From an uncultured archaeon (GTDB lineage Archaea; Iainarchaeota; Iainarchaeia; JAADDC01), in the NCBI GenBank assembly GCA_964486025.1, contig CAZAKL010000002.1:2312-66311 (forward strand): DNA of 64,000 nucleotides, in the 5' to 3' direction. Position numbers and translations under genes: made by a program. The first letter of the stretch is position 1. Each line of letters opens with the position of its first letter. The notes below the pieces were generated by a model that had not been told where the DNA came from, did no database searches, and saw nothing but the letters and a program-made list of their open reading frames with translations. This document shows, in pieces, positions 5,782 through 40,047 of the stretch.

Positions 5782-5831
5782 GTAGGGAAGATAAACCGAA
5801 ACCCTTTGAAATGGGGATGCCATATTTCTGT

Positions 5832-10743: not shown

Positions 10744-10744
10744 A

Positions 10745-14752: not shown

Positions 14753-14780
14753 TTATAAATGAGCAGGGCGTTTTAACCAC

Positions 14781-15761: not shown

Positions 15762-15821
15762 AGATGGAAGAGGTCATTTATATGCCCTTTGCCCCCAGAG
15801 TATATCGTGGCTTCCCGTCGC

Positions 15822-16151: not shown

Positions 16152-16884
16152 TAGCGCAGATGTTCTTAAGAAGAGTGTGAAGGCTCTTTCAGCTCTTATC
16201 GACGAAGGGGAGTTCATATTCGATGAGGAGGGCATGAAGCTGCGCGCGACTGACCCATCTAAGATTGCGATGGTGGATTTCTCCCTTCCAAAGCATGCCT
16301 TCCGCGAGTACGATGTTCCCGGTCCTGTGAAGGTGGGCCTGAATCTCTCCGACCTTCAGGACGTCTTCAAGAAGGCGAAGTCCTCAGAGTCCGTTGAAAT
16401 GTCACTTTCCGAGGACGGTTCCCGCTTCACGATTGAGCTCGTCGGCCGTGCGCGCCGCCGTTTCGTCCTGTCGGTCCTCGACCTCGGCGGTATGGAGCTT
16501 CCGCTCCCGAAGATACCATTCACCGCCACCGCAAAGGTTATAGCGGACGTATTCGCATCTGCGCTGGACGACGCATCTTCCTTCTCTACGCACGTGACCA
16601 TAGAAGTCACGCCAGAGGAATTCACGATGCGGGCGTCTGGCAGCAAGGGCGAGTACGCCCTTGAGCTGAAGAAGGACGTTCACGATGCGCTCCTCGACCT
16701 GAATGTCTCCGAGCGTGCAAGGGCATCGTACCCGCTTGACTACCTGGAGGACATGGTCTCACAGGCAAACAAGAGCGCTGCAATAACCATTTCCCTCTCG
16801 ACGGATGCGCCCCTGAAGCTGGCGTATGCGATAGGTGATGCAAACTTTGTATACTTCCTGGCGCCCAGAATAGAGACGGGTTGA
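16135..16884 (+). CDS. pcnA: DNA polymerase sliding clamp PCNA (paralog A)
   Basis: 250 aa, PCNA fold signature throughout, C-terminal LAPRIE. GGAGG lies 7 nt upstream of the ATG. Confidence 0.9.
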   Translation: MKVVFDSADVLKKSVKALSALIDEGEFIFDEEGMKLRATDPSKIAMVDFSLPKHAFREYDVPGPVKVGLNLSDLQDVFKKAKSSESVEMSLSEDGSRFTIELVGRARRRFVLSVLDLGGMELPLPKIPFTATAKVIADVFASALDDASSFSTHVTIEVTPEEFTMRASGSKGEYALELKKDVHDALLDLNVSERARASYPLDYLEDMVSQANKSAAITISLSTDAPLKLAYAIGDANFVYFLAPRIETG

Positions 16885-16888
16885 TAGC

Positions 16889-17638
16889 ATGGAGCAGCTA
16901 CACGTCCTCCTTGAAGACCCGAAGCCGTGGAAGCAGGCGGTGGATGCCCTCTACTCCTTTCTTCCCGAGGGTGTTTTTTACTTCGGGGAAGATGGCGTCC
17001 GCCTGCGGGCGATAGACCCATCTCAAGTCGTCTTTGTGGACTTCTTTGCTCCGCGTTCCATATTTTCCAGATATGAGCTGGCGAGCTCCCCCATACGTGT
17101 TCCCCTTGACCTCAATGAGTATGCAAAGATTCTGGCGCGCGTTTCTGGAGGGGAACGGCTGAGCATGGTGCTTGAGGACGTTAATCTCTCTGTTGTCCTT
17201 GAACGACCGGACGGTTCTCTCCGCAGGGAGTTCTACGTCCCTCTTATGGATATCCCGGACCACGATGTGGAAATGTCCCCCGTTGAGGGGGCGGTCACTG
17301 TCCAAATCCTCGGCAAGATTATGAAGGATGCCCTGAAGGACGCTGGCATATTCTCGTCCTCCGCCGTCATTGTAGCACGTGACGACATATTCATGGTGGA
17401 GGCAAAGGGACAGGCGGGCGTGACGAGGACTGTTGCCAGGAAGGGCGACGCCGTCAGAATAGAGGGCGGTCCGGAGGCAGTCTCTCGTTATTCCCTCTCA
17501 TTCCTGCAGAATATTATACGTCCGGCGGACCCGGACAGCTTTGTGACGCTTTCCTTCGGCAACGACACGCCCCTGAGCATATCCTACAAGATAGGGGACA
17601 TATCGCTCCGTTTCTATCTCGCACATATGATACTCTGA
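16889..17638 (+). CDS. PCNA paralog B (divergent)
   Basis: 249 aa with PCNA-like architecture (both N and C domains). Only distant identity to paralog A. Confidence 0.8.
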   Translation: MEQLHVLLEDPKPWKQAVDALYSFLPEGVFYFGEDGVRLRAIDPSQVVFVDFFAPRSIFSRYELASSPIRVPLDLNEYAKILARVSGGERLSMVLEDVNLSVVLERPDGSLRREFYVPLMDIPDHDVEMSPVEGAVTVQILGKIMKDALKDAGIFSSSAVIVARDDIFMVEAKGQAGVTRTVARKGDAVRIEGGPEAVSRYSLSFLQNIIRPADPDSFVTLSFGNDTPLSISYKIGDISLRFYLAHMIL

Positions 17639-17639
17639 C

Positions 17640-17670
17640 GGTTCACATTTCGAACCTTTTCTCTTTTTGT
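17640..17670 (+). terminator. hairpin (GGTTC-7nt-GAACC) followed by a T-rich tract
   Basis: Seen directly after the PCNA-B stop: ggttcacatttcgaacc, then ttttctcttttt. Confidence 0.4.
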
Positions 17671-17692
17671 AGCGTTTCCCCCAAGTTATACC

Positions 17693-18562
17693 GTGGAGTC
17701 CTTTTACGCCGTGTACCCGTTTCTCCCTTCTGCTGCAAGGAGGGCGGAACGTCTTGGTATAGACCCCACTGCCCTCGACGACGCTACCCTCTCGTCTGCG
17801 TCCGACCGTTTCCGACAGATTCTCCTGAAGCACTTTGACCTTCCCGTCTTAGATGAGCGGACGGAGCTTCTGCACTTCATTCTTTTCCGCATGTTTGCGT
17901 CAGCGTTGGGGAGCGACTACTATTATGAGCTGCTCGGGAAGTTCTATGCGGAGAGGGCGCGGCGTTACGACCCCGTGGAATTCTTTGTGGAGCTGGGAAT
18001 AGACCCCTCTGCGATTCCGCTTCCTGAGTATATGAAATACAGCCACATCTACCCGGAAACGAAGCTCTACTACGTTGATGTTGAAAGGGGTATTGTGCAT
18101 CTTGACGACGAGCGTGCACGGCTGTTCGCCGGCGATATCGCGTATACATTGTCCATACGGGGGCTCCCCCTCGACCCGTCGAAGATACCGAAGGCGTACG
18201 TGGACTATGCACGGCGGGCAGTGCCTGTTCGCCGTTCATCTTCTCCAAAGACAGCGAAGGGCTACTCGTTCATAGAGTCCATCCTTTCCACCTCTGGCAT
18301 TCCTGACGGAAGGAAACGCATCATTTTCTACTGGTTAGCGCCGTATCTCGTAAACATAAAGGGTCTGACACCTGAAGAGGCAGTCTCCGTCCTTAACGAG
18401 TGGCTCTCTCGGCAGGGAGGTGGCAAAATACCTCCATCGTGGGTGAAGGATGAAGCGCTCCTTGCGAAGAGGAAGGGTATACGGCCGTGGGGCCTGAAGA
18501 AGGTGGAATCCACCGACCCGGGTCTCGTCAAGATGCTCCGTGGCATGGGGGTGCTTGAATGA
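17693..18562 (+). CDS. cysteine-free helical protein co-translated with PriS (PriL-NTD/PriX-like candidate)
   Basis: 289 aa, GTG start, stop overlaps the priS ATG (ATGA). The motif DGRKRIIFYWLAPYLVNIKGLTPEEAVSVLNEWL resembles PriCT/PriX-type helical modules. No Cys, so no Fe-S ligands. Confidence 0.5.
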   Translation: MESFYAVYPFLPSAARRAERLGIDPTALDDATLSSASDRFRQILLKHFDLPVLDERTELLHFILFRMFASALGSDYYYELLGKFYAERARRYDPVEFFVELGIDPSAIPLPEYMKYSHIYPETKLYYVDVERGIVHLDDERARLFAGDIAYTLSIRGLPLDPSKIPKAYVDYARRAVPVRRSSSPKTAKGYSFIESILSTSGIPDGRKRIIFYWLAPYLVNIKGLTPEEAVSVLNEWLSRQGGGKIPPSWVKDEALLAKRKGIRPWGLKKVESTDPGLVKMLRGMGVLE

Positions 18563-19809
18563 GTGAGCAAATCGCGAGGATACTCAGGGACGCGTTTCGC
18601 CGATATTACAGGTCTCACGACGTTCCGCCGCCCCCGGCTCTGGAGCAGAGGGAGTTTGGCGTCGGTGACTATGGCAGGAAGATTGTGAGGCGGCACATGG
18701 CCTTTGTATCGCGTCGCGAGTTCCGTAACTACCTCAGAGAGGAGGCCCCCCTCTACATTTCGTACTCCGTGGGATACTTTGAGCGCCCCGATGCCACGCC
18801 CATGGAGGCGAAGGGCCTTCTCGGTGCGGATATGATATTCGAGTTCGATGCGGACGAGCTCGGGCTGTTCTCACCAAACGATGTATGGGTCTGCCCCCAC
18901 TGCGGTGCAAAGGGCCTCGTCTCCGAGCTTAGGGGATTCAAAGTGGGGATATGCCCCAAGTGTGGCGACCCTGCAAAGGTTATCATGTTTCCCGACCCTG
19001 AGAGGGAAGAGAAACTGAAGGAAGAGGTCGATACCCTTGTAAAGGATTTCCTAATGAACGATTTCGGCATATCTTCCAAGGAGATATCTATAAACTTCTC
19101 GGGGAACAGGGGATACCATATACATGTCCGCTCCCCTGCGCTGCGAGAGCTGGACAAGGAAGCGCGCATAGAGATTGTCGAGTACGTCACGGGCCAGAAC
19201 ATAGACGTTCGCTACTTCTTCGATGTGTCTAGGGTTCCCCCGCGGGGTCCAAAGCCCACGGACCCCGCATGGAAGGGCAGAATTGCCCGGAACATCATAG
19301 AGATTATTTCGAGGGTGAGCGACGCGTCCGAGCTTGTGCGCATGGGCGTACATCCCGGTGTCGCACGCAGGATTGCACGTGACAGGGGGCAAATCGTCGA
19401 GATGATAGAGAACGGGGTGTGGCCATTCATCGATACGAAGGGTGATGACGCCTTTGCCTCCCTCTCCGCCCTTGTGAAGACGCTGTCGCCATTCATGGGC
19501 AAGGAAATAGATACGAATACGTCTGTGGATATTCACCGCCTCATACGTGTTCCCGACTCTATACACGGAAGCACAGGGCTTCTTGCCAAGAGTATAACTA
19601 ATCTGAAGGCCTTCGACCCGTATAGAGACGCGGTGGCGCTTCCCGAGCGCCCGTACCTGTCTCTGCACGTGGACTATGCACCCGAATTCGAGTTTGCCGG
19701 CGAGACCTGGGGACCGTTTCAGGATATAAATGTGGAGTTACCTCTTCATGTTAGTATATTCCTTTTGAGCAAGGGGGTCGCGCATTGGAGATTAACTACT
19801 CGAGGTTGA
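18559..19809 (+). CDS. priS: DNA primase small (catalytic) subunit PriS
   Basis: AEP motifs FEFDADE, SGNRGYHIHV and IDTNTSVDIHRLIRVPDSIHGSTG. Zinc knuckle CPHC...CPKC. 416 aa. Confidence 0.9.
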   Translation: MSEQIARILRDAFRRYYRSHDVPPPPALEQREFGVGDYGRKIVRRHMAFVSRREFRNYLREEAPLYISYSVGYFERPDATPMEAKGLLGADMIFEFDADELGLFSPNDVWVCPHCGAKGLVSELRGFKVGICPKCGDPAKVIMFPDPEREEKLKEEVDTLVKDFLMNDFGISSKEISINFSGNRGYHIHVRSPALRELDKEARIEIVEYVTGQNIDVRYFFDVSRVPPRGPKPTDPAWKGRIARNIIEIISRVSDASELVRMGVHPGVARRIARDRGQIVEMIENGVWPFIDTKGDDAFASLSALVKTLSPFMGKEIDTNTSVDIHRLIRVPDSIHGSTGLLAKSITNLKAFDPYRDAVALPERPYLSLHVDYAPEFEFAGETWGPFQDINVELPLHVSIFLLSKGVAHWRLTTRG

Positions 19810-20402
19810 GGAACCTTTACCGGCTGGAGAAGCAATCTCATACGCGTCTAACGCGCGTGGAACCCGATTTCTACAGCCTTCTGAAGAAGTATATAGACGA
19901 GGAGAAGAAGGAAGTGGAGCGTGCCTGGCGTGAGCAGGATATACAGCGTCTCGTGCTCTTCGCGAACCTTGTCAAGCTCGTGAACGACATCATATCAATC
20001 CGCCAGCGCAAAATCGTAACGCTCGCCCTTGCCAGCATGTTTGACGAGGCATGGGAGCCGGAGAACATCGTGGGCTGGGAGAAGGACCTTTACCGGGACG
20101 TTGTCGAGACAGTTCGGCGTTACAGGGAGCGGGCCCTTGTGGACGTCGGGCTGAAGGAGGGTGCAGAGCCGCCCGTGGAGAAGGTGACAGAGAGCAGGCA
20201 GTTAGAAGAGAAGCGTTTAAAGACCGTTCGGGTTAAAATCTTAAAAGCGGTCCCGGAGTTTGTAGGTACGGACTTCAAAACATACGGTCCGTACGCTGCA
20301 GGGGAGACCGCGGAGCTGCCAGAAGAGATTGCTAACATCCTGCTGGTCAGGAACTTCGCAGAGGTGATTCAAGATGAAGAGGATTCCAATGCCGAGGTCT
20401 AG
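19785..20402 (+). CDS. gins15: GINS subunit Gins15 (Gins51)
   Basis: N-terminal A-domain pattern ([19 protein letters not shown]) plus the conserved gene position immediately downstream of priS. Confidence 0.7.
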
Positions 20403-22787: not shown

Positions 22788-25625
22788 GTGGGGCGGGGGC
22801 TGGCGGTCAGTCTGGCGCAGCTTCTTCTTTTTGGTGCAGCCATTATATACCTTTATTCCTGCCATCTTGGAAATCTCGTCACCTTTGACGTGCCGCCATG
22901 CTCTTCCGTCTCTTCATGCACGAAGGCCACCGGTGTTATGGATACGGCTCCTTGGTACGCAAACCTTGTCGGTCGTTCTTGGTACTACTCTAACCGCGCC
23001 CTGAAGCTCTACGATGCTGCCAAGGACATATGTGAGGGCGAGTTTAACGTCAGCGCGGTCCCCGAGCTCGTTTCCTCTGCAACTTCCAAGACTGCACCCG
23101 ATGCGGCGAATGCCCTCCACTACGCCAACGAGTCTGTTTCCAAACTCGTGGGCAAAGCGGGGGCGATAGCTGACGAGATGTATCGCGGTGGCGTAACGTA
23201 CGTTCCCTATGCGGACCTTCGCTCTGTGTACTCGACCGCCGTCGACGCTGTGCGTGCCTACGAGGGCAATACGCCTTCTACTGCTCTTGGCGTGGCGATT
23301 TCCCGGTACAAGGATACGCATCCTGCGATTCGCACAGTCTTTACCGCGGCAGGTGTGGAGGTTCCCCGTGTTCTGGTATATGTGGGGAAATTTGGCAGGG
23401 TTATCGCCCCCAATCTCTCCCGGGAGATACTTGCAGGAGTGTCTACAGTGTTTCAGGGAATATTCAGTAAGCTGGACCCAGGGGATGTCGTGAATTCCGC
23501 CGTGGGCACGCGCGATTCGGTGTATTCAGAGGCTGTTCGCTTTTTAGATGAGTATTATGCTGTCGTGAACGGGTATGACAGGTCTGCGCAGGGCATTCTT
23601 GAAGATGCGCGAAGGACGTACGATGCTGTCGTAAAACTGTCCTCCGATGTTGAGTATCGTTCATCGCAGCTATCCCCCGAAATGCTTTCCTTTTTCTCAT
23701 CTGACCGTGGCCTCGAAGTTTCTGTTGCGGATGAGCCGTCTTCCCTGCCCGCTGATGCCCGCATACGTGCGGCAAAACTGAAGAAATTCATAGAGGGGAA
23801 CGTTTATGCGTACATTCGCAGGGAGAACAACTACCTAGTTGCGTACTGGCGTGCGGAAAGAGCTTTCAAAGAATTGGCGAAGGTAAAGGGCGACCTCGAG
23901 CGGTACTCGAATGAAATCTCAGCCCTTGCTGAGTCCTGCTACAAAACCGTGTCGAAATACCGTCCCCGTTCCGGATACTTGAAATCCGTTCTCCCCGGCT
24001 ACGCTGCAGCGCTGAAGGAAAACCCTGATTTTTCCCTCTGTGTTCAGGCACTTCAGTTGATGGCCCTCGATGCAAACTATGCGCGCGACGAGGCAATCCT
24101 TGCTTCCTGCGAGTCCGCCGTTTCCTGTGGCTCTGTGCTTCCCGAGGACTATCCCTGCGTTGGTGGCGAAATTGGGGACCGTATCGACTGCTGTCTCCGT
24201 TACCGTGAGAGAAAGCACTCGGAAATACTTTCATCCGAGCTTTATTCTCAGTATTTGCAGCTGAGGAGGTCTGTGGAAGCGTTGTTATCAATATACGACG
24301 ACCCATCTCTCCGCTCGGAGCATCTTGCCAACCCGGTAGACTTTATCTGCGATTCAGACCTTGCAAAGGCCATTTCCCGGGAAACCAAAATTTATCTGAA
24401 ACTGCGCAAGGCTGCAGAGGGCATGGTAAAGCCGGAGGTCCTTGTTGACGGATATCTTAACGCTAAAACGGTTTCCTCTGTAAGGGTTCGTTTTCTCCTG
24501 GACGCCGGCGGTGCTGACCTCCTTGTGAATTACGACCTGCCCTTCCAGGTGCTTGCGTATCGCGTCGTCGAGTCTAACGGGCTGTGGATATCAATATCTG
24601 CCAATGGAAGGACGGCAAGTCTGAGGGGAAGCGGCTCTGTTCTCATCGATGCAGAAGTTATGCCCGTGGAGCTTGAGGTTGAAGAGTGGGGCGCATCCAT
24701 GGGTCACAAGTACCTAAGGGTCAGGAACAGACTTCCCATCCCTGTCAAGTATCCATTTAGCGGGGATGTTGTTTCCGCGAGCGATAATGTTTCGTACGAC
24801 GGGAAATACGTGTATTTTGATGGTGTGGGGGAAGTGCTCCTTGCAGTGCCCGCCGTGGAGGTGAACTATGTCATTCATGGTGATACTGCCACAGTCTCTA
24901 TTCGCAACGCTTCCGAGTACGAGTATAAGGGAGAAGTGGTTATCCCGTTATCTGGAAGGAAGCTTCCACGTGGTTGCAAGCCTCTCGGGGACGTTAGTGT
25001 TTGCTCTGTCAACTTAGACCCTTTCTCTGAGGACGTGATTGAGATTGAGGGGGTGTCTTCGGATTTAAACTTTGCCTTTGAGGAATCTGTAAGTTCATTT
25101 TCCACCGTAAGCGAATTTGGCAGTTCAAAACTCTACGAAACTGCTGTTTTGTCCGACACGTCGGGGACAGTTAATGACATGCGCGATAAGATATTTCGGC
25201 GGCTTGAAGAACTGCAGAAACTGTTTGAGCGGGCGGAGGAGCTCAATGTGGTGAACCTTCTTCCGTATTCTTCTGAATTCCTTGACAGTATGAACTCGAG
25301 GATATCGGAGACGAACGACTCCGTCGTTTTGGCGGTGTACGAGTCCGTCCTTAACAGTATTTATAACGACGTTGTCTCACGCGCCCGTGCACTTGTGTTC
25401 TCCGTGCCGCCGGATACGGATGTGCGTGCCCTTGCAGAGCGTGCCCTGAATTCCGGTGACTATATGTTGGCCATGGCACTTGCAGCCTCTTACCATCCCA
25501 AGCGGGCTCCCGGCACATCTGTTCCCTACGCATCGCTGGCTCTTGGCGTCCTGTCGCTCGGCCTTCTCGTTTATTACCTGCGCACACAGAAACCGAAAAA
25601 GCGCCGCCGGATTCCAAAAATATAA
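22788..25625 (+). CDS. large surface/envelope protein (945 aa), hypothetical
   Basis: N-terminal signal-anchor, long Ser/Ala/Val/Tyr-rich ectodomain with several Cys pairs, C-terminal TM followed by a basic tail (KPKKRRRIPKI). TATA box at about 22760, GTG start. Confidence 0.6.
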   Translation: MGRGLAVSLAQLLLFGAAIIYLYSCHLGNLVTFDVPPCSSVSSCTKATGVMDTAPWYANLVGRSWYYSNRALKLYDAAKDICEGEFNVSAVPELVSSATSKTAPDAANALHYANESVSKLVGKAGAIADEMYRGGVTYVPYADLRSVYSTAVDAVRAYEGNTPSTALGVAISRYKDTHPAIRTVFTAAGVEVPRVLVYVGKFGRVIAPNLSREILAGVSTVFQGIFSKLDPGDVVNSAVGTRDSVYSEAVRFLDEYYAVVNGYDRSAQGILEDARRTYDAVVKLSSDVEYRSSQLSPEMLSFFSSDRGLEVSVADEPSSLPADARIRAAKLKKFIEGNVYAYIRRENNYLVAYWRAERAFKELAKVKGDLERYSNEISALAESCYKTVSKYRPRSGYLKSVLPGYAAALKENPDFSLCVQALQLMALDANYARDEAILASCESAVSCGSVLPEDYPCVGGEIGDRIDCCLRYRERKHSEILSSELYSQYLQLRRSVEALLSIYDDPSLRSEHLANPVDFICDSDLAKAISRETKIYLKLRKAAEGMVKPEVLVDGYLNAKTVSSVRVRFLLDAGGADLLVNYDLPFQVLAYRVVESNGLWISISANGRTASLRGSGSVLIDAEVMPVELEVEEWGASMGHKYLRVRNRLPIPVKYPFSGDVVSASDNVSYDGKYVYFDGVGEVLLAVPAVEVNYVIHGDTATVSIRNASEYEYKGEVVIPLSGRKLPRGCKPLGDVSVCSVNLDPFSEDVIEIEGVSSDLNFAFEESVSSFSTVSEFGSSKLYETAVLSDTSGTVNDMRDKIFRRLEELQKLFERAEELNVVNLLPYSSEFLDSMNSRISETNDSVVLAVYESVLNSIYNDVVSRARALVFSVPPDTDVRALAERALNSGDYMLAMALAASYHPKRAPGTSVPYASLALGVLSLGLLVYYLRTQKPKKRRRIPKI

Positions 25626-27576: not shown

Positions 27577-29466
27577 TCACCTCAGGCGGAGCACATCGAG
27601 GAGGCGCGGGGCGTAGGATTCTGTCTTTATGGACCTGCCCAGGTCCCGCGCGAGGGAAACGCATTTCTCCTCCTCACCGTGCACGGTAAGGATTCTCGAG
27701 GGTTTCTGCGGGAGGTGGCGGACGAACGCCTCCAGCTGGCGCCTGTCCGAGTGCCCCGAGAAACCGTGGAGTGTTTCTACCTTTGCCGCAACGTGGAGCG
27801 CTTTCATTTTGCCCCCGTTCATCTTAACTGGTATCTCCCGTATGCCCTTCTGGAGTTTTCTACCGAGGGAACCTTCAAACTGGTATCCTACGAGCGCAAT
27901 GGCATTTCTTTCATCCTCTGCTATGCGCTGGAAGTAATCCACTGCGGGGCCCCCTGTGAGGGAACCTGAGGGTGCTATGATGATTGCGGGCCCGCCTTCG
28001 ACAATTTCGTCGCGCTTTGCATATGAATCCACGTATATGAAGTGTTCCATTTCGAAGGGGGAATCGTTGGACAGTATCCTCCTCTGGACGTCGCGTTTCA
28101 GGTACTCCGGATACGCTGTGTATATCGCGGATGCCTCCTTTATCATGCCATCCACGTATATGGGCCAGTCGTAACCATTCCTGCGGTACATGGCCTCCAG
28201 TGTGAGCATAATCTCCTGGGCGCGCCCCACCGCGAACGCCGGGATGAGGAGCTTGCCGCCCTTTTCCATTGTCTCAACGAGCAGTTTCTCGAGGGCTGCT
28301 TCTGTCTCCTTTCTCGGCGGGTGCACGTCATTGCGGCCACCGTACGTTGATTCGATTATTAGCGTCTCCACGCGAGGATACTTCGTGTCTGCAGGGTTGT
28401 GAAGCCGCGAGAATCCAAATTTCAGGTCACCTGTGAACACAATATTGTGGAAGCCCTGCCCAATGTGCATATGAACCGTTGCAGAGCCAAGTATGTGGCC
28501 AGCGTTGTGGAAGGTTATCCTCACGTCCGGGGCAATGTCCGTGACTTCCCCGTAGTTCCTTGTTATTGTCTGGAGCGCAGCCTCCTTCACCCACCTCTCA
28601 GAGTATGGCGGCTCCCTGTTATCCTTTACGAGAACGTCGACGAAATCAAACTGCAGGAGCGCGGAAAGGTCTCTTGTCGGCGGAGTTGCATATATCGGAC
28701 CCTTGTAGCCGAGTTTCACGAGGTAAGGAACCATTCCGGAGTGGTCCAGGTGCGCGTGCGTCACAACTATCGCGTCTATCTCATCCAACGGTATACGAAG
28801 GACGTCGAGCTCGGGGAACATTGCACCGCTGCCCGATACATCCACACCCGCGTCGACGAGTATCTTGCTCTCGGGAGTCTCTACAAGGTACGCGGAGCGG
28901 CCAACGAAGCGTGCTGCGCCGAGGAAGTGAACACGAACCCATTCCTTGGCGCTTTTTTTCGGTCTGTTTATACGTGCGAAGACCTGTTTGTAGAACCTTT
29001 TTCTGTCCTTCACGTGCTTGATGAGGACCTTTCGCACGCCCTTCAGGATGTTACTCTCCATTGCCGGAGCCCGCTGAACGTTTGGTAGCCACCCAATCTG
29101 CTCGACGATTCTCCGGAGCGTTTCACCGCCCTTTCCTATGATTAGGCCGGGTTTCTTTGCCTCTATGAACACGGTGCCGAGCTCAGGAACAAACTCTATG
29201 TTTGTTATGCCCGCCTCTTCGGGAACGGTCGCGAGTATAACCTCCTTCGCGTGCTCAGGGGGTGTAAGTATGGATGAATCGCTGCGTATGTTCACGCGCT
29301 TTTTCAATGCGGCGGCAATCCTTGCAACGGCATCTTCATGGTCCAGGAAGTAGACTGGGTTGCGTGTGTAAATCCCTATTTCAGGCCCTTCGGGCTCTAC
29401 CTTCGTCACGCCTGCTTCCTTGTCAACAATCTCCACTACCCTCTTTAGAAGCTCTTTATCTGCCAA
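27577..29466 (-). CDS. fttA: aCPSF1/FttA, KH-KH-metallo-beta-lactamase-beta-CASP ribonuclease (transcription termination factor)
   Basis: Two N-terminal KH domains, HAHLDHSG MBL motif, and beta-CASP motifs. 629 aa. Confidence 0.9.
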   Translation of the reverse strand: MADKELLKRVVEIVDKEAGVTKVEPEGPEIGIYTRNPVYFLDHEDAVARIAAALKKRVNIRSDSSILTPPEHAKEVILATVPEEAGITNIEFVPELGTVFIEAKKPGLIIGKGGETLRRIVEQIGWLPNVQRAPAMESNILKGVRKVLIKHVKDRKRFYKQVFARINRPKKSAKEWVRVHFLGAARFVGRSAYLVETPESKILVDAGVDVSGSGAMFPELDVLRIPLDEIDAIVVTHAHLDHSGMVPYLVKLGYKGPIYATPPTRDLSALLQFDFVDVLVKDNREPPYSERWVKEAALQTITRNYGEVTDIAPDVRITFHNAGHILGSATVHMHIGQGFHNIVFTGDLKFGFSRLHNPADTKYPRVETLIIESTYGGRNDVHPPRKETEAALEKLLVETMEKGGKLLIPAFAVGRAQEIMLTLEAMYRRNGYDWPIYVDGMIKEASAIYTAYPEYLKRDVQRRILSNDSPFEMEHFIYVDSYAKRDEIVEGGPAIIIAPSGSLTGGPAVDYFQRIAEDERNAIALVGYQFEGSLGRKLQKGIREIPVKMNGGKMKALHVAAKVETLHGFSGHSDRRQLEAFVRHLPQKPSRILTVHGEEEKCVSLARDLGRSIKTESYAPRLLDVLRLR

Positions 29467-32187: not shown

Positions 32188-33123
32188 TCAGGACCGGGTA
32201 ATGTTCAGGTCGCAGCAACCCTTTGTGTCCAGCGGCCTACAGTCCACCACGATTTCTGCCATGAATGGGTTATTTCCCACGTATTTAACCACGTTGTTTT
32301 CGTATCTGAACAGCCCGTTCAGTTCCTCTGAAACGTGCGTGCACAGCTTCATTGCAACCATCATTTCCACTGCTGTCACGTTCAGATCTTCCCCCGGCAG
32401 AAACACCATGCTAGCTTGAGTGATGCCTACGCCTATTGCTACCTTTACTTCGCCCGCTACGGCGTCTTCCATGCTGCTTGGGTGCGGGACGTACGGCTTA
32501 TGGGGAGCTGCGTTCATCGCGTAGATGGCTGCCGCGTAAATGATGGCTATCCCTACTGCAGCGGCTGTTGCAATTTTTACTGCCCTATTATCTACCTTGA
32601 ACGCAAATACCATTCCAATGATCCCCGGAATCAGCCCTAGAATATAGATGATCGTCCCCATTCCTCTGAAGATCCAGAGTGCAGCGAGTGAGATGGTGAT
32701 TGATGCCATGTTTGCAGCCACCGACACAACAACGGCGTCCCTTCTCCTCATTCCTGCCTGCTCGAACACCCATGCCTCTATTGCAATCGCTGCAAGCTCT
32801 GCCACAGCCTTTGCGGCTAGGAACTGCCAGGTGATCTGGTTTCCTCCGAAGAACATCATTCCAAGGAACGGTACGAGCATAACAATCGGCACGCTTATCG
32901 CGTTGGCTGCGCACACGCATTTCCACAAGTCTTTCGTCTGCCGCTGTTTCCATCTCGCCAGCGCCAGCACAACGGGGAGTTCAATTATGATGTTCATTCC
33001 CACGATCGCGAGGTATGCCCAGAACACGAAAACTCCGATTTCGGGACCAACCACGATGTCCGCGTGTGCGAGTGGGATCGCAAGAATCGCCGCGAGCACC
33101 ATTGCGAGGTACTTGTTCTCCAT
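32188..33123 (-). CDS. polytopic membrane protein (about 9 TM), hypothetical
   Basis: 311 aa, hydrophobic throughout. Confidence 0.55.
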   Translation of the reverse strand: MENKYLAMVLAAILAIPLAHADIVVGPEIGVFVFWAYLAIVGMNIIIELPVVLALARWKQRQTKDLWKCVCAANAISVPIVMLVPFLGMMFFGGNQITWQFLAAKAVAELAAIAIEAWVFEQAGMRRRDAVVVSVAANMASITISLAALWIFRGMGTIIYILGLIPGIIGMVFAFKVDNRAVKIATAAAVGIAIIYAAAIYAMNAAPHKPYVPHPSSMEDAVAGEVKVAIGVGITQASMVFLPGEDLNVTAVEMMVAMKLCTHVSEELNGLFRYENNVVKYVGNNPFMAEIVVDCRPLDTKGCCDLNITRS

Positions 33124-33186
33124 GTAGTTTGTTAATTTTTCCCTCCTTTATATTCGTTGCTTCTCGCGAGCCAGGAGAACTTGAAG

Positions 33187-33297
33187 TGGGGCCGCGGGGA
33201 TTTGAACCCCGGACCTTCGGTTTTCCTCAACCCGTGGCAGTGTTGCCAGAGCGGGTCTTATAAGACCGACGCTCTGACCAGGCTGAGCTACGGCCCC
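33187..33297 (-). tRNA. intron-containing tRNA, anticodon UAU (tRNA-Ile, AUA-decoding) as read by hand
   Basis: Acceptor GGGGCCG/CGGCCCC with A73. D-arm GCTC-AGCCTGGTCA-GAGC. Anticodon stem TCGGT/ACCGA with loop CUUAUAA. A roughly 36-nt intron sits at the canonical 37/38 position. T-arm CGGGG-TTCAAAT-CCCCG. No encoded CCA. Confidence 0.75.
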
Positions 33298-33334
33298 GTC
33301 TGCAAAAGAGTAATATAGAGAAAGTTAAAAAGGG

Positions 33335-33988
33335 TTAGATATTTAGTTCCTCTCCCGGCGCTAGGATTTCTACCCTCGCCGTCTCCCCCACGAGCTGCTT
33401 GAACTCCTCTGGGTTCTGGCGAATCGGCGGGAACGTGTTGTAGTGCATCGGGACGACGATTCTGGGTTTGAGCAACTCCACAGCCTTCGCAGCCTCCCTT
33501 GGGCCCATTGTGAAGTAGCCGCCGATGGGCAGAAGCGCCACGTCTATTGGTCCGTAGAGTTCGCTGAGGAGTGCCATGTCGCCGAATACGAAGGTGTCTC
33601 CGGCATGGTATACCGTTTTTCCGTCCATTTTTACGATGTATCCCGCCGCGTTTCCGATTTCCTGCCCATTCATGGACGAAGAGTGCCAGGCGGGTACCAT
33701 GACGATGTCCACTCCCTCAATTCTCGCCGGCCCATAGTTCATGCCGTAGACGTTGACGCCGCGCAGGTGCTGGGCAATGTCGTACATGCATACAACGGGG
33801 GCGTTGAATCGCTTCGAGAGCTCTACTGCGTCCCCCATGTGGTCACCGTGCGCGTGGGTCACGAGGATGATGTCAGGTTTCCCCTCAAGCTCTGCTGCCA
33901 TTGGGTTACCGGTTAGGAAGGGGTCTATGACGACATTCTTCGACCCCATAATCTGGAAAGCGGCATGCCCGAGATACCTTATCTTCAT
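33335..33988 (-). CDS. metallo-beta-lactamase-fold hydrolase (UPF0173 family)
   Basis: HAHGDH motif. 217 aa. Confidence 0.8.
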   Translation of the reverse strand: MKIRYLGHAAFQIMGSKNVVIDPFLTGNPMAAELEGKPDIILVTHAHGDHMGDAVELSKRFNAPVVCMYDIAQHLRGVNVYGMNYGPARIEGVDIVMVPAWHSSSMNGQEIGNAAGYIVKMDGKTVYHAGDTFVFGDMALLSELYGPIDVALLPIGGYFTMGPREAAKAVELLKPRIVVPMHYNTFPPIRQNPEEFKQLVGETARVEILAPGEELNI

Positions 33989-35376
33989 GCTCTCACCCCC
34001 TCACAGATTTCCTTGGGCGGGAACGACAGCATCTTACAGAGCACATTGGCAATGTCCTGTATCCGTGGGTCCAGAACGTACCACCCGTTTATTATTGCAA
34101 GCGTTTGCCCAACGCCTGACCTCGCACTGTCCTGCACGAAGAAAGACACAATCTGGTTTGCGGAAGACGAGTAGCACGTCTTCACCCTGTCCACGTTAAT
34201 GTTTGCGTCCTCCGCAGCGGTTTCGATGCAGGATTCTGTGGCTCCGCATTCCCTGAATGAAAGCGCAAAGCTGGTCCATTTCATAGGCCCGCCGTTCAGG
34301 TATGCGCAGTACTCCGCGACCATTTCCCGCAGCCCTGTGTCGCCCCCCGGGATTATTGGCTTTCCCGATGCGTCAAAGCGAACAATGTAGTGCGGATTAA
34401 CTGTTATTCTGCCGTCTGCCGCGTATAGTATTCTGTTGAGCTCCTCAAGCAATGGTTCAGCGTTCTCTGCAAGGTATACATCCACCGTGGCGGTTTCATC
34501 CCTTGTCAGCACCACTCCGTCTGGGTAGTATTTGCTGCCCGGGAAGAGCTCTGCGACTATGTCCGGATAGTCTGTCACTATTTTTGCAAGCACATACTCC
34601 CCGTATTGAACTATGTTCACATCTGCGGGTATTCCAGCCCTCTCGAGGCGTGCCTTCACTGCTTCTGCAAAGTCCGGGCGGGAGAGCACCGTTGCCCGCA
34701 TCTTTGGCACTTCCAGAACACCGTCGGCTATCCTGGACAGCGGATAGTACTGTGCCACGGTCTTCACAATCTCCGGCGTTGCCTCTACGAGAATGTAATA
34801 ATCGTTTGTCTCGTGCTCGGTTACAATAACGTTGTCCGCTGCCAGGTAGAGGATGGATTTGAGCCTGTCCACATTCACATTTTTATCGGCGTAGAGCGTT
34901 ACCTTCGTTTCTCCCTTTCCGGGCACGTAGCGGCGCGTCGGCCAGAGGGGCCGGAGTGCGTAGTAGTTCCTGAGCTCAATGATGTTCGTGCGTATCCCTC
35001 CCCTTTGGCTCAGGGCTTTGTTCAGGTCTTCGAAAAACTTCGTGCCCTTTACGTCTTTTGTCATGAGGATAAGTGGAACAACGTTCACATTCTCCTCGCG
35101 GAGCCTCGCGTATATCTCCTTGCCGATTCCCCTGTACACGCTTGTCTTTACGATGCGGACGCCCGACGTGTCGGCGTTGTTCTCAATGAAGCTGACAAAC
35201 TGCTCAAAGGGAGCCGAGCAGATGTCGCATTTTTCATCAGACAGTACGTATACTGTCTTTGAGCTTTTTTCGACTCCGCTCGGCACGTGTCCACCGAAAT
35301 ACGCTGCAAAGGCCAACCCCAAAATGAATCCGATTACGACGAAGACAATTCCTGAGACGTTTTTGTTTTTGGACAT
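33985..35376 (-). CDS. membrane-anchored extracytoplasmic protein with N-terminal thioredoxin-like CxxC domain and C-terminal DsbA-like domain (paralog 1)
   Basis: N-terminal TM; DEKCDICS CxxC motif; segment VNVVPLI...YYALRPLWPTRRY shared with paralog 2; C-terminal ...GVGQTLAIINGWY resembles the DsbA cis-Pro region. Confidence 0.5.
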   Translation of the reverse strand: MSKNKNVSGIVFVVIGFILGLAFAAYFGGHVPSGVEKSSKTVYVLSDEKCDICSAPFEQFVSFIENNADTSGVRIVKTSVYRGIGKEIYARLREENVNVVPLILMTKDVKGTKFFEDLNKALSQRGGIRTNIIELRNYYALRPLWPTRRYVPGKGETKVTLYADKNVNVDRLKSILYLAADNVIVTEHETNDYYILVEATPEIVKTVAQYYPLSRIADGVLEVPKMRATVLSRPDFAEAVKARLERAGIPADVNIVQYGEYVLAKIVTDYPDIVAELFPGSKYYPDGVVLTRDETATVDVYLAENAEPLLEELNRILYAADGRITVNPHYIVRFDASGKPIIPGGDTGLREMVAEYCAYLNGGPMKWTSFALSFRECGATESCIETAAEDANINVDRVKTCYSSSANQIVSFFVQDSARSGVGQTLAIINGWYVLDPRIQDIANVLCKMLSFPPKEICEGVRA

Positions 35377-35410: not shown

Positions 35411-36781
35411 TTAACCACAGCTGCCAGATGCGGCGCTCGCCTGGAGTTCCGTTTCACAGGCGCCCTCTGGCGGATTCTTCATGAATGCGCAGACGAGTTC
35501 AGGGAATTTCGAGTTTCTCACGTCTGCCTTGAACCAGCCATCGATGAGCGTCGTTGGGGAGCCGGTAACTCCCTTCGCTGCGCTTATGGCAGCCTCCCGT
35601 GCCGCGATACTGTTGAACTCCGTGTCGTAGCACTGCTTTATTGCATTAACGTCAAGGTTCATGTCCTTCGCCACGCCCTCCCAGCAGCTGTCGGCGTTGC
35701 TGGCGCTACAATTCTTGTTTATTGCAAGAACGAAGTCCAGCCACGCATCCTCTCCGAAAAGCTTGTAGACACAGGCCTCTCTGATGTCCTGATGGAGCTC
35801 CTGGTCTCCGTGCAGCGAACGGAATTGGTTGTTGCCGAGGTCAGATATAATGTAGTGCGGTACAATGTGTATGCGGTCCCCGAAGGTCTCCTTTAGCTGC
35901 GGTATTAGCCCTTCGGCCTGATTCCCGAATGGGCAGAAGCTCATTACGTAGAGCTCAACGTCTACCGTTTCCTTCTTCGGGACGAGGAGCGCATTGCCTT
36001 CAACCATTGCCCCGCTGAACGCTGTTTTCATGGAATCTATGAGTGTCTTCGGTCCCTCGAGCTTGAGTACGTAGTCTTTGCTGGGTTCCTCTTCAATAAT
36101 CTTTGCGTTCTCGACTGTCTGGTAGACGTATGGTGCTATAATTGAGCGAATCGTGTCCGTTGCCCATATCCTAACGGGGGTTTCTGGTTTGTTGGGGTCG
36201 TACTTCCTGGTTGGCCAGTCGGGAAGGAGGATGTAGTACTTGTCTGCTTTCAGGAGGACTCTCTGTGCGCCGCCGTACTGGGCGAGCATTTTGTCAAGCG
36301 TCTTGTAGAACGCGGTATCTTCTATGTTTCCCTCGAGAACGATGAGCGGGACTACGTTGATGTTGTTTTCCAACAGCACGTTGTAGATTTTCCTACCTTC
36401 GTCGCTCTGCACGCTAACCTCTTCCCTCGGTATGCTCGCGAACTGGAAACGGTCGTCAAGTATGGAGACAACCTGCTTCATTGTATCGCCGCAGCTGTTG
36501 CAGCCATCGTCCATAAGCAGTATTGCTCTGGTTGTGTTCTGGGTGCCTTCCGGTGCGCCGGCACTTGTGTTCGCTACAAAGTAGCCCACTCCGATTCCAA
36601 GGAGCAGCACGGCTAGCACAACCCCTATGAACGGCCAGTAATTCTTTGGAACTGTTTTTGCCGTCTTTTCAACATTGTCCGCTTTCATCTCCTCAGCTTT
36701 CTTCTTCTTTGCAGTTTTTTCCACGTGCTCTTTCTTTGGGGCAGCTGATTTGCGCGAGCTCTTTCTTGGCATACTTACCAC
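35411..36781 (-). CDS. paralog 2 of the membrane-anchored double thioredoxin-fold protein
   Basis: Lys-rich cytoplasmic tail and TM; DDGCNSCGD CxxC motif; INVVPLI...YYILLPDWPTRKY; SFCPFG; GVTGSPTTLIDGWF DsbA-like motif. Similar to the upstream gene over the full length. Confidence 0.5.
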   Translation of the reverse strand: MVSMPRKSSRKSAAPKKEHVEKTAKKKKAEEMKADNVEKTAKTVPKNYWPFIGVVLAVLLLGIGVGYFVANTSAGAPEGTQNTTRAILLMDDGCNSCGDTMKQVVSILDDRFQFASIPREEVSVQSDEGRKIYNVLLENNINVVPLIVLEGNIEDTAFYKTLDKMLAQYGGAQRVLLKADKYYILLPDWPTRKYDPNKPETPVRIWATDTIRSIIAPYVYQTVENAKIIEEEPSKDYVLKLEGPKTLIDSMKTAFSGAMVEGNALLVPKKETVDVELYVMSFCPFGNQAEGLIPQLKETFGDRIHIVPHYIISDLGNNQFRSLHGDQELHQDIREACVYKLFGEDAWLDFVLAINKNCSASNADSCWEGVAKDMNLDVNAIKQCYDTEFNSIAAREAAISAAKGVTGSPTTLIDGWFKADVRNSKFPELVCAFMKNPPEGACETELQASAASGSCG

Positions 36782-36837: not shown

Positions 36838-37386
36838 ATGGAGCCACAGATTATAGAGGGCGGGCTCTGCCCTGCCTGCGGAAAGAAGACGCTGAGGACA
36901 GTTGTCGTTGAAAAGAGCCTTCCCCATTTTGGACGGGCAGTTATAATGACGTCCAAGTGCTCATCGTGCGGATATACACATACAGATGTCATAGAGCTGG
37001 AGGATAAGGGGCACAAGGTTCTTGAGCTAAAGGTGGACAGCCCCGAGAAGTTAAACTACGTTGTTGTTCGCTCCTCATCGGCTTCTCTTCGCATACCGGA
37101 GTTAGATTTGGAACTGCACCCCGGGCCCTTTTCTAACGGGTTTATTACCACTGTAGAGGGAGTTCTGGACCGTTTTGAGGACGCAACCAAAAAGTGGAAC
37201 CCGAGCACGGAGGAGGAGCGCGTACTGAGGGAGAAGGCGCTGAAGGAGATAGCAGATGCAAAGGAAGGGAAAATACCCTTTACGGTCGTACTGGAGGACC
37301 CCCGCGGAGTTTCTGGTATTATACCGCCCGATGACGTACCTTCGCTGCGGGAACGTGGGGAATCTCAGCAATCTCGCGGGGAGTGA
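36838..37386 (+). CDS. ZPR1-type C4 zinc-finger protein (COG1779)
   Basis: CPACGKK...CSSCGY zinc ribbon plus a ZPR1-like beta domain. 182 aa. Confidence 0.7.
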   Translation: MEPQIIEGGLCPACGKKTLRTVVVEKSLPHFGRAVIMTSKCSSCGYTHTDVIELEDKGHKVLELKVDSPEKLNYVVVRSSSASLRIPELDLELHPGPFSNGFITTVEGVLDRFEDATKKWNPSTEEERVLREKALKEIADAKEGKIPFTVVLEDPRGVSGIIPPDDVPSLRERGESQQSRGE

Positions 37387-38839
37387 GCGTCGCCTTCCCC
37401 GTGGCAAGGACGTTGTCGTTCTCGTCGACGATTATAATCTCCATGTTCGGGCGCATCTCTGGGTCGCTGTCCAAGACATGGTCTGTGAGGGGCGAACGCT
37501 TCTTTTCTATTGCTTCCCTCCCGTCCTCGTCCACCACTATCCGTGTGCGGGGGGAGGGTATTAGAGCTACAAGCCACTTTGCCCCGTCAACGCTCGGCAC
37601 AAAGAAGCCATCTTCATAGCGAATAAGCCCGATGTACGTTTCGCCCCTGTATATCTTCCTCGGAATTCCTCTCTTTACCTCCCAGCGGAGCTCCGAGACG
37701 TCCACATCCACACCGTACTGATACTTGAATACCGCCCGTATGACCTCCTCTGGAGACGGCCGTTCCTCGAAGAGCGGCGGGTAGGTTTGGCCAAAGGGGT
37801 ACGTGAACGCGAGGTGTTTGATGTTGACTGCCCTCTCCTTTGCCAGCTTTTTCCCCAGCGCGATTTCAGGTCTGTACTCTTTTTCAAAGAGGTATATGCT
37901 GCTCTGCTTCGGGAAAGGCATGCTCTCAAGCACGTGGTCTGAGTGGACAATGTGTTCAAACCGCTTGAACATGTCGGGATGTGTTAGCGCTCGCCTCCGT
38001 GCATACTCGTAGAGACGGCCCTCCCGTATCGCGTTTCTCGTTCTCCTTATCTCTCCCATAAACTGGAGGAGATTGTGTTCAACGAGAAGCTCTTTATTTC
38101 TTTCAAGGTCGTCCCTCTCCCTGTCTGCGCAGATTTTGCAGGCGCAGGGAAGCTCCTCTATCTCGCGGAGGGGACGGATGGAGGACTCCGTTATGTATAA
38201 TCCCTTGCCCGCGTAGCGTGCATGCGCCCCCGACGCGAAGACGTCCACGCCGAGGGCGGCAAGGAGGGGAATGGTGGCGGGGTGGTGTATTCCGAGGACT
38301 GCGATGCGTTTCGAGCGGGGGGCAATTGCGAGTATTTTCTCGAGGAATTCAGGGTGGTCGGAGTGCGTTCCGTATCCCCATGCCCATTCCTTTGTTGCCT
38401 CCACGAATGCGACGATTTCCTTCTCTGTCCAGCTTGCAGGGATTTCCAGGAAGAGTTCCTTATCGACAATCTCACGTGCTATTTCTGCGTTGACTATTGC
38501 ATCCTCTACACGGGAAGAAGGAAGGGGAGCGATAACGGGGAAGCCCATTTTTGCCTGAACTTCCACGATGTCCTCGCTGGTCACGTCCTCGTCCCCGTAC
38601 TTATCTATCTGCTTCCACCCACTCTCTGGGAGAACAAAGCCGTCGAATTTGAGATAATCCTTCACGTTCTTGCCCAGAATCTGGCGGTAATTCCTGTCTG
38701 TCCATATCCGATAGACGTTGACGAGGATTCCGTCTGTATCTGGAGCGGGTGGGCCGTATACGGAGGGGAAGAATGCCGGATATGTGATTCCATCCGCTTC
38801 CATGAGCCTCGCTGCCAGGTCGCGGGCACGAATCTTCAT
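37319..38839 (-). CDS. tgtA: archaeosine tRNA-guanine transglycosylase (ArcTGT) with C-terminal PUA domain
   Basis: TGT TIM-barrel with the zinc site CACKIC...H and C-terminal PUA-like extensions. 506 aa. Confidence 0.85.
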   Translation of the reverse strand: MKIRARDLAARLMEADGITYPAFFPSVYGPPAPDTDGILVNVYRIWTDRNYRQILGKNVKDYLKFDGFVLPESGWKQIDKYGDEDVTSEDIVEVQAKMGFPVIAPLPSSRVEDAIVNAEIAREIVDKELFLEIPASWTEKEIVAFVEATKEWAWGYGTHSDHPEFLEKILAIAPRSKRIAVLGIHHPATIPLLAALGVDVFASGAHARYAGKGLYITESSIRPLREIEELPCACKICADRERDDLERNKELLVEHNLLQFMGEIRRTRNAIREGRLYEYARRRALTHPDMFKRFEHIVHSDHVLESMPFPKQSSIYLFEKEYRPEIALGKKLAKERAVNIKHLAFTYPFGQTYPPLFEERPSPEEVIRAVFKYQYGVDVDVSELRWEVKRGIPRKIYRGETYIGLIRYEDGFFVPSVDGAKWLVALIPSPRTRIVVDEDGREAIEKKRSPLTDHVLDSDPEMRPNMEIIIVDENDNVLATGKATLTPREIAEIPHVPAAKVRHRAV

Positions 38840-40047
38840 ACCTTATACCTCAGTATTGCCCCGACACCGCCGAACCCGCGGGCCATTTTCTGGCCCTCCT
38901 CGGTGTCAGGGGATATGAAGAAAATCTTTGCACCTGTATCCTCTGCCATCTTTATCATTTCCTCAATCGCGTCCTCTATGACGTCGAGTTCCATTTCTGC
39001 ACCGCAGTTGGGGCATTTGTATGGCTTTTTCAGGTCCTCTGCATTCTTTGCAACGCGTTCCTCCTCGTGGCCACACTTCGGGCAGACGTACTTCCCCAGC
39101 CAGGCCTCCGCGTTTTCCACCACGAGAAGCGTGTCCACTCGCCCCTCCTTCAGGGCCTTGTATACGTTGTTCAAGCCGTAGTCCGCGAGGCCTCCCTTGA
39201 CGATTTCGCCGATGAACTTTTCCACGGCCTTTTTCTGGCGTACGATTTCGGCGTCCCTCAGGATTTCCTCTGCGCTGTCTATCGCCTCGCGTATGCCGTA
39301 CTCGTTTGTGTAACCCGTGTCGATTATACCGAGAATTTTCTGCTTGAGGCGGGGATCGAGATAGTCCTTGTTGTAGAACTCGTTCTTCTTCGGTCCGGGG
39401 CCCGCGAGTATGATGCCCTTCAGCTTATCCCCCAGCTCGAGAAAGACTTCCTTCGCCTCTTCAGCCACCTTCTTCATGTACTCGTGGTCCGCTATTTCCC
39501 GCAGTCGCTCAAATCGACGGGCGGACTGACCACCCGCGTGGTGCTTTCCCGGCGCGAGGGACCTTATTCGGGCGACGATGTCAAAAGTGTTGCCCTTTAT
39601 GAGCGCGAGCGTTGCTTCTTTTCCATCCATTGCGATTACGCCGTAGTACTCCGTTGGCTTTATCATCTCCTTCAGGGGCTCGAGGTAGAATGTCGAATCG
39701 CATCGATAAATCTTGGAAACCGGCTGGGGTGGCGCCACGGAGAATAGACGGATATCCTGCTCCCCCGGCTTGGGAGAGATGTTTCCGCAGAATATGACGA
39801 GGCCATTTTCGGGGAGCTTGTAGTCGATAGCCTTCAGATAGTTCATTATCTTTGCAAGGGCTGCCTGAACATTTTTTCTGGTTGTTTTGTCCTTTATGTT
39901 TCCCGCCTTGCTGTGCTCGTCCGTCAGCATGCTCATTATGTCGCCTCTCGGGTACTTTGGTGGGATGTACAGTGAGATTAGTTGTGTTCCGGTGCCGCGA
40001 ATGTTCTCTAGCTCCCTTACGAGGCGCTTTAGAAACGCGTCATCCAT
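38836..40047 (-). CDS. prf1: peptide chain release factor aRF1
   Basis: NIKD (NIKS-like) and GGQ motifs. C-terminal domain carries a CxxC...CxxC mini zinc ribbon. Stop overlaps the tgtA start. Confidence 0.9.
   Translation of the reverse strand: MDDAFLKRLVRELENIRGTGTQLISLYIPPKYPRGDIMSMLTDEHSKAGNIKDKTTRKNVQAALAKIMNYLKAIDYKLPENGLVIFCGNISPKPGEQDIRLFSVAPPQPVSKIYRCDSTFYLEPLKEMIKPTEYYGVIAMDGKEATLALIKGNTFDIVARIRSLAPGKHHAGGQSARRFERLREIADHEYMKKVAEEAKEVFLELGDKLKGIILAGPGPKKNEFYNKDYLDPRLKQKILGIIDTGYTNEYGIREAIDSAEEILRDAEIVRQKKAVEKFIGEIVKGGLADYGLNNVYKALKEGRVDTLLVVENAEAWLGKYVCPKCGHEEERVAKNAEDLKKPYKCPNCGAEMELDVIEDAIEEMIKMAEDTGAKIFFISPDTEEGQKMARGFGGVGAILRYKV

Follow-up and report, generated by a model that had tools for sequence, protein, structure and literature searches.

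In archaea, the isoleucine codon AUA is canonically read by tRNA-Ile2(CAU), whose C34 is modified to agmatidine by TiaS. The tRNA gene described here, found in a 64-kb stretch of DNA (the whole of which is referred to as the window), very probably serves the same task, which is to read AUA as isoleucine without reading AUG, and does so with an encoded U34 where the tRNA-Ile2(CAU)/TiaS system has a modified C34. Archaeal tRNA-Ile(UAU) has been described for Nanoarchaeum equitans and Korarchaeum cryptofilum (PMC6000648, PMC3895270), and these were the 2 of 167 archaeal genomes in which such a gene was reported, that of K. cryptofilum containing an intron (PMC6000648). Both resemble the window in possessing an archaeal genomic tRNA-Ile(UAU), although they belong to different phyla and were compared by description only. 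The korarchaeal tRNA-Ile(UAU), which also bears an intron, resembles its own tRNA-Ile(GAU).

A further archaeal example is that of ARMAN (Candidatus Micrarchaeum/Parvarchaeum), which shares with the window a DPANN affiliation, a genomic UAU anticodon and a single intron at position 37/38 within a bulge-helix-bulge. ARMAN lacks both TiaS and tRNA-Ile(CAU), and its own endonuclease, of the epsilon2 type, cuts the precursor in vitro (PMC3239211). The intron of ARMAN-2 is 25 nt long and has a strict splice motif, whereas the intron in the window is 36 nt long, with an A35.G mismatch in the motif and a distal hairpin.

Outside the archaea, eukaryotic tRNA-Ile(UAU) is similar in its anticodon, its 37/38 intron and a precursor in which the intron pairs with the first two anticodon bases. 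The yeast intron is required for the pseudouridines at positions 34 and 36, which are made by Pus1 (PMC4090602). The archaeal endonuclease recognises the bulge-helix-bulge and not the mature domain, in contrast to the eukaryotic tRNA-Ile(UAU) system. Mycoplasma mobile is likewise a prokaryote that lacks the modified-C system and reads AUA with a UAU anticodon; it differs in being bacterial, in having an intron-less tRNA-Ile2(UAU) and in using an unmodified U34, which works through an arginine of IleRS (Arg865) and a property of the ribosome (PMC3575796). Haloarchaeal U34 mutants gain cnm5U and read AUA, AUU and AUG (PMC3895270).

The tRNA gene and its spliced product

The sole Rfam match in the 64-kb window, and hence its sole tRNA, is a match to RF00005 (tRNA) at 33297..33187 on the minus strand, scoring 62.9 bits with E 2.9e-11 (gathering score 29). 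The match spans model positions 1-71 (all 71), with a 37-nt insert straight after the CUUAUA of the anticodon loop. An earlier note on this DNA had placed a tRNA at identical coordinates without giving its strand. Two orthologous loci were recovered by a genome scan, L028 (Candidatus Iainarchaeum archaeon DJKA99_ANT-F21_bin.46) and L052 ("Methanobacteriota archaeon SZUA-1452"), and these support several of the features listed below.

33187..33297, minus strand: complete pre-tRNA-Ile(UAU), 111 nt, without an encoded CCA (RF00005, ARAGORN -i, same exons in L028 and L052)
33259..33297, minus strand: 5' exon, tRNA positions 1-37, comprising the acceptor strand, D-arm, 5' strand of the anticodon stem and CUUAUA (sequence read, splice-site parsing)
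33260..33262, minus strand: anticodon UAU, positions 34-36 (bulge-helix-bulge splice sites, intron-less Micrarchaeota homologues with CUUAUAA)
33223..33258, minus strand: 36-nt intron at 37/38, AGACCCGCUCUGGCAACACUGCCACGGGUUGAGGAA (RF00005 insert, splice parsing, orthologue alignment)
33187..33222, minus strand: 3' exon, positions 38-73, comprising A38, ACCGA, AGGUC, the T-arm CGGGG-UUCAAAU-CCCCG, the acceptor 3' strand and A73
33325..33331, minus strand: TTTTTAA, TATA-box-like, 28-34 nt upstream of tRNA position 1, equally spaced in L028 and L052

In the RNA sense, with the intron in brackets, the sequence reads GGGGCCG UA GCUC AGCCUGGUCA GAGC G UCGGU CUUAUA [AGACCCGCUCUGGCAACACUGCCACGGGUUGAGGAA] A ACCGA AGGUC CGGGG UUCAAAU CCCCG CGGCCCC A. 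The spliced product of 75 nt is predicted to adopt a class I cloverleaf as its minimum free energy structure (-33.9 kcal/mol, computed fold), and it carries U8, A14, G18G19, U33, A37, G53-U54-U55-C56, A58 and C61, a variable loop of 5 nt (AGGUC) and the discriminator A73. The mature anticodon loop would be CUUAUAA, in which the anticodon UAU is flanked by U33 and the purine A37. The TTTTTAA upstream of the tRNA may serve as the archaeal TATA box of a promoter. Taken as a whole, the gene at 33297..33187 is very probably a functional archaeal tRNA gene that decodes AUA as isoleucine.

Intron position and anticodon

The anticodon of this tRNA depends on where the intron is placed. Several different excisions of 36 nt leave a loop of 7 nt because the flanks of the loop read CUUAUAA and GAGGAAA, and the anticodons that could result are GGA, UGA, UAA or UAU. 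ARAGORN found no tRNA in the window in its default mode, and with introns allowed (-i) it reported the same gene with a 36-nt intron placed at 34/35, which would make it tRNA-Ser(UGA). The mature anticodon might therefore be thought to be UGA or GGA (Ser) or UAA (Leu).

The splice motif points elsewhere. In the archaeal motif, a helix of 4 bp lies between two bulges of 3 nt, and the first two anticodon bases are in the helix (PMC4090602). A hand parse checked by script has the anticodon stem UCGGU/ACCGA adjoining such a bulge-helix-bulge, with a 5' bulge of U36 A37 A and a 3' bulge of A A A38 (both 3 nt, exactly spaced), a central helix made up of C32-G, U33.G, U34-A and A35.G (three pairs and one mismatch) and an outer intron helix, GACCCG/CGGGUU, of 6 bp. 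Because of the run of A at the intron border, the boundary could equally be drawn one base along, and the product would be the same. This is the sole register beside UCGGU/ACCGA that fits the bulge-helix-bulge rule, and it therefore puts the intron at 37/38 and gives the anticodon UAU. The motif is relaxed and not strict because its central helix contains the A35.G mismatch, which is also present in five other loci from the scan (L026, L094, L108, L101 and L077).

Homologous genes agree with this register. It fits 24 archaeal intron-containing tRNA(UAU) homologues, a result that is somewhat favoured because the script picked the 3' site partly by pairing score. The intron strand opposite CUUA varies among the 24 (UAAG, UGAG, UGGG, GAGG, GAAG) with pairing mostly kept. 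Intron-less tRNA genes of Micrarchaeota are exactly 75 nt long, have the same architecture and the CUUAUAA loop, and are 81-88% identical to the spliced product.

Serine and leucine tRNAs belong to class II, which has a long variable arm, and a Ser or Leu identity is excluded because the variable loop here has only 5 nt. ARAGORN has no bulge-helix-bulge rule in its intron placement, and in intron mode it called the homologues L017 and L026 Ala(UGC) and Ser(UGA), respectively, where the bulge-helix-bulge gives Ile(UAU) in both; its intron placement is therefore unreliable. The Ser(UGA) call was ruled out on these grounds together, namely the short variable loop, the two 3-nt bulges that lie 4 bases apart beside the anticodon stem in the 37/38 register only, the CUUAUAA loop of the intron-less homologues and the inconsistent and wrong isotypes given to homologous genes. 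That the intron lies elsewhere in the loop and the tRNA is one for Ser or Leu is thus highly improbable. The earlier note had proposed, from hand folding, a canonical cloverleaf after removal of an intron of roughly 36 nt at 37/38, and on this point the RF00005 insert, the splice parsing and the computed fold agree; its loop CUUAUAA with anticodon UAU, U33, A37 and A73 is borne out by the splice register and the intron-less homologues, and the different anticodon that it had named as grounds for refutation was met with in the ARAGORN call alone, which failed on splice geometry, tRNA class and both sets of homologues.

A C/D-box guide within the intron was also considered and dropped, as no C or D box was found in the 36 nt.

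Conservation of the gene in orthologous loci

The tRNA gene occupies the same syntenic site in the window, L028 and L052, just downstream of a gene for a protein with a metallo-beta-lactamase fold. The exons are identical at 75 of 75 positions across the three loci, and all substitutions fall in the intron. By comparison, the flanking DNA is 70-75% identical to that of the orthologous loci, and neighbouring proteins are 50-90% identical in L028 and 31-75% identical in L052. Judged by this alignment, the exons are under very strong constraint. Substitutions in the helices of the intron preserve pairing, an A-U pair in the outer helix being replaced by G-C in L052 and the distal hairpin of L028 having GAGAC/GUCUC instead of UGGCA/UGCCA. 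The TTTTTAA is kept 28-34 nt upstream in all three loci while nearby spacer bases differ.

The pattern of conservation bears on whether the gene might be a pseudogene in decay or resemble a tRNA by chance. Such a reading could draw on its being the only tRNA within 64 kb, on the mismatch in the central helix and on the predicted minimum-energy fold of the precursor, which is not a cloverleaf (see below). Against this are the E value of 2.9e-11 for the Rfam match, exons conserved at 100% at a syntenic site where the neighbouring DNA is 70-75% identical, compensatory changes in the intron and the conserved TATA-like element upstream, and decay or chance resemblance is accordingly very improbable. 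The sequence of L052 is titled "Methanobacteriota" despite tRNA exons identical to those of the window and L028 and a hydrolase gene syntenic with both, and the label looks wrong or very coarse.

Isoleucine identity and the use of AUA

Assignment of the isotype as Ile is supported by the anticodon, the class I shape, A73 and sequence similarity. The mature tRNA is 81% identical to one tRNA-Ile(GAU) and at most 72% identical to 12 tRNA-Met(CAU), in a sample that is small and biased. Among the 24 genes in the window with Pfam support, ATA makes up 386 of 770 Ile codons (50%), or 36.5 per 1000 codons. Where ATA codons of the window could be aligned in orthologues, the corresponding codons were ATA (32), ATT/ATC for Ile (15) or codons for Leu (13), Val (13) and Met (2). 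Given that ATA makes up half of the Ile codons and aligns with Ile, Val and Leu, AUA is a heavily used Ile codon, and the tRNA that decodes it ranks as a major one. Reassignment of AUA to Met was entertained and dropped, Met occurring at so few aligned codons compared with Ile, Val and Leu.

Distribution of tRNA-Ile(UAU) among archaea

A scan of one genome per species, using a permissive pattern that also matches bacteria and yields a lower bound for archaea, recovered at least 30 archaeal genomes with a tRNA(UAU) gene, most of them DPANN. The labels of these genomes include Woese-, Micr-, Iain-, Aenigm- and Nanoarchaeota, and a few are labelled Methanosarcinales, Promethearchaeota or simply archaeon. 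The 37/38 intron is present in 24 of them, and pooling this set with a scan of metagenomes gave 98 unique intron-containing variants. The earlier note had held that a genomic tRNA-Ile(UAU) is rare in archaea. This is true of the classical cultured archaea and is overstated for archaea as a whole, the type being known from Nanoarchaeum, Korarchaeum, ARMAN and the genomes recovered here. Comparison with tRNA-Ile(UAU) from other archaeal lineages, which the note had also raised, came out in its favour, with the same 37/38 register in the 24 intron-containing genes and the same loop in the intron-less ones.

The organism from which the window derives falls among these lineages. NCBI proteins at least 90% identical to those encoded in the window are named Candidatus Diapherotrites archaeon, and L028 carries the label Candidatus Iainarchaeum, in phylum Iainarchaeota of kingdom Nanobdellati (DPANN). 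A gene for tRNA-Ile(UAU) is expected in this host because the lineage is labelled Diapherotrites/Iainarchaeum. The gene is a typical case of the known archaeal tRNA-Ile(UAU) type, and not a new decoding system.

Some of the other genes have features of their own. The tRNA(UAU) genes of L045, L071, L078, L082, L088 and L094 have a second intron in the region of the T-arm besides that at 37/38. Three double-intron genes are in metagenome-assembled genomes (MAGs) with the label Methanosarcinales, whose contigs could be DPANN sequences that were binned wrongly. L066, a 3.7-Mb scaffold of an Asgard-labelled MAG (Promethearchaeota), bears an intron-containing tRNA(UAU) whose intron starts with GUCUCCGCUCUA, as does that of L045.

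AUA decoding and TiaS

A route from the gene to AUA decoding can be proposed. Transcription would start from the TATA-like promoter, the ends of the precursor would be trimmed and CCA would be added, because none is encoded. The exons would be joined by a ligase after removal of the intron, and the mature 75-nt tRNA, with UAU, A37 and A73, would presumably be charged by IleRS and read AUA. Archaea have an IleRS of the eukaryotic type. If ARMAN and Nanoarchaeum are a guide, the tRNA-Ile(UAU) would take the place of the system of tRNA-Ile2(CAU) plus TiaS with its agmatidine. Neither the splicing endonuclease nor RtcB, IleRS or TiaS was found among those open reading frames of the window that were scanned; RtcA is present (57842-58906).

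TiaS was searched for with the Archaeoglobus fulgidus protein, the query being identical to the sequence in PDB 4RVZ/3AMT. No homologue was found by tblastn in the 64-kb window or any fetched locus, and no tRNA-Ile2(CAU) was found in the 64-kb window. In a protein-database search with the same query, the best 120 matches were all from Archaeoglobi.

Alternatively, the tRNA-Ile(UAU) could be real but redundant, in a genome that also has TiaS and tRNA-Ile2(CAU) and thus two AUA decoders, with no switch of strategy. The genome scan also matched MAGs labelled Promethearchaeota and Methanosarcinales, groups that are expected to possess TiaS, and some Firmicutes have a tRNA-Ile(TAT) gene alongside tilS (PMC3575796). 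On the other hand, loss of TiaS accompanies tRNA-Ile(UAU) in all archaeal cases studied, namely Nanoarchaeum, Korarchaeum and ARMAN (PMC3239211, PMC3575796). The reduced state of DPANN genomes, the rank of AUA as the major Ile codon, the very strong constraint on the exons and the failure to find tiaS in the window or any fetched locus together make redundancy of this kind unlikely. Decoding of AUA in this organism is probably independent of TiaS, and replacement of tRNA-Ile2(CAU) plus TiaS by tRNA-Ile(UAU) is the most likely state of affairs here.

An intron segment complementary to the D-arm

The minimum-energy fold predicted for the whole precursor is a rod and not a cloverleaf. In the rod, CUCAGCCUG of the D-arm pairs with CGGGUUGAG of the intron, a second segment of the D-arm pairs with a box near the start of the intron, and the anticodon is placed in a GGUCU-UAUA-AGACC hairpin. 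The box and its partner are as follows.

33245..33253, minus strand: intron box CGCUCUGGC, complementary to GUCAGAGCG of the D-arm (fold prediction, complement counts, covariation)
33270..33278, minus strand: 3' segment of the D-arm, GUCAGAGCG, comprising the end of the D-loop, the 3' strand of the D-stem and G26; predicted partner of the box

In all three orthologues the rod is predicted to be 10-14 kcal/mol more stable than the cloverleaf with its bulge-helix-bulge (about 10 kcal/mol for the precursor in the window), according to nearest-neighbour energies that ignore tRNA tertiary structure. The RNAalifold consensus of the three orthologues is also the rod. CGCUCUG, with which the box begins, does not vary among the window, L028 and L052, though its CUC is unpaired in the splice-competent fold.

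The box recurs in other introns of this type. In the set from the genome scan, whose pattern fixed AGAGCG, a 6-mer complementary to AGAGCG (positions 21-26) is present in 11 of 24 archaeal introns, compared with 2.9% of shuffled introns, and other 6-mers of the 5' exon away from this segment of the D-arm have a complement in 0-4 of the 24. The pooled set, for which the search patterns fixed AGAGC, has a complement of the core in 34 of 98 unique genes, and in 23 of those 34 it starts 4-7 nt into the intron. About a quarter of the tRNA-Ile(UAU) introns, including that of the window, thus bear a CGYUYU(+R) box 4-7 nt from their 5' end that matches the D-arm at about positions 19-26. Other loci with the box are L028, L052, L045, L066, L071, L078, L082, L088, L114, L132, L166, L171, L189, L240 and others. 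Matches to the D-arm farther into the intron (offset of at least 20), which are mostly T-rich and heavy in G.U pairs, were not counted.

Three pairs that extend the core, and that were not used in the selection, are paired in 73% of cells as opposed to 63% in shuffles, a value reached by 2 of 500 shuffles, and their covariation score is 0.49 as opposed to 0.29 in shuffles, which none of 500 reaches; the box-bearing sequences in these comparisons are not independent, being related. Directly beside the core, 11 sequences have U-A and 4 have C-G. The control consisted of 29 further intron-containing tRNAs that ARAGORN called in these loci, of which only 2 could form a 7-bp helix with their own D-arm.

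No description of pairing between an intron box and the D-arm was found in the literature searched, and as an observation the box may be new. It is conceivable, if somewhat doubtful, that the pairing is real and gates a splicing or modification step, the precursor switching between a rod that sequesters the D-arm and a spliceable cloverleaf with the bulge-helix-bulge.

Genes surrounding the tRNA

The window contains archaeal core genes for replication (PolD small and large subunits, Cdc6, two PCNA, PriS/PriX and GINS), for translation, protein handling and export (aIF2-alpha, aRF1, a proteasome subunit, SRP54 and FtsY) and for lipid synthesis (G1P dehydrogenase and GGGP synthase). It is also rich in genes for tRNA and RNA processing, among them FttA, Pus10 and RtcA.

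5002-5823: D-aminoacyl-tRNA deacylase
10718-13018: TmcA/Nat10-type cytidine acetyltransferase
27577-29466: FttA
37319-38839: TGT-like protein with C2 and PUA domains, matching only the C-terminal half of the TGT model (possibly ArcS-like)
57842-58906: RtcA
59569-60783: Pus10

The replication genes are clustered at 13700-20402 and 51031-55990, where Cdc6, two adjacent PCNA paralogues, PriX, the primase small subunit and GINS51 are encoded, with the PolD subunits further along. For a genome labelled DPANN, it is unusual to find PriX together with multiple PCNAs and PolD. In the gene for aRF1 (38836-40047, minus strand), domain 3 contains some 30 inserted residues (~319-351) matching zinc-ribbon families, and this gene gave the sole weak tblastn match to the zinc ribbon of TiaS.

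Near the tRNA are two adjacent paralogues (33985-35376 and 35411-36781, both on the minus strand) encoding proteins of 456-463 amino acids that are about 35% identical to each other and for which Pfam gives nothing or, at most, a weak thioredoxin-like match. At 50-61% identity to L028, these are the fastest-evolving proteins in the syntenic block. An open reading frame of 945 codons (22788-25625, plus strand) has no Pfam match even at E 0.01. Downstream of the tRNA, a membrane protein of 311 amino acids (32188-33123) is only 38% identical to its counterpart in L028. An ENA metagenome contig, k141_204219 (assembly ERZ27262635), is 99.9% identical to the window and ends at 33157, which is 30 nt downstream of the 3' end of the tRNA. 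The region directly 3' of the tRNA seems to be variable.

Implications

A tRNA finder that allows for introns but takes no account of the bulge-helix-bulge rule mis-assigns genes of this kind as Ser or Ala instead of Ile, and a genome annotated in this way would seem to be without an AUA decoder. The box in the intron, if confirmed, would provide a testable handle on the frequent retention of introns in tRNA-Ile(UAU). If the proposed switch between folds is true, it would amount to a conformational checkpoint that is encoded in the intron and specific to tRNA-Ile(UAU) of archaea, and it might order modification (for example of U34 or the D-arm) before splicing, rather like the eukaryotic intron on which pseudouridines 34 and 36 depend. 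For the family as a whole, the gene in the window is a further example, clean and well conserved, of the other way in which archaea solve the AUA/AUG problem, this time from a lineage with the label Iainarchaeota/Diapherotrites, and the number of genomes with such genes suggests that the UAU solution is common among DPANN archaea and is not confined to two or three genomes.
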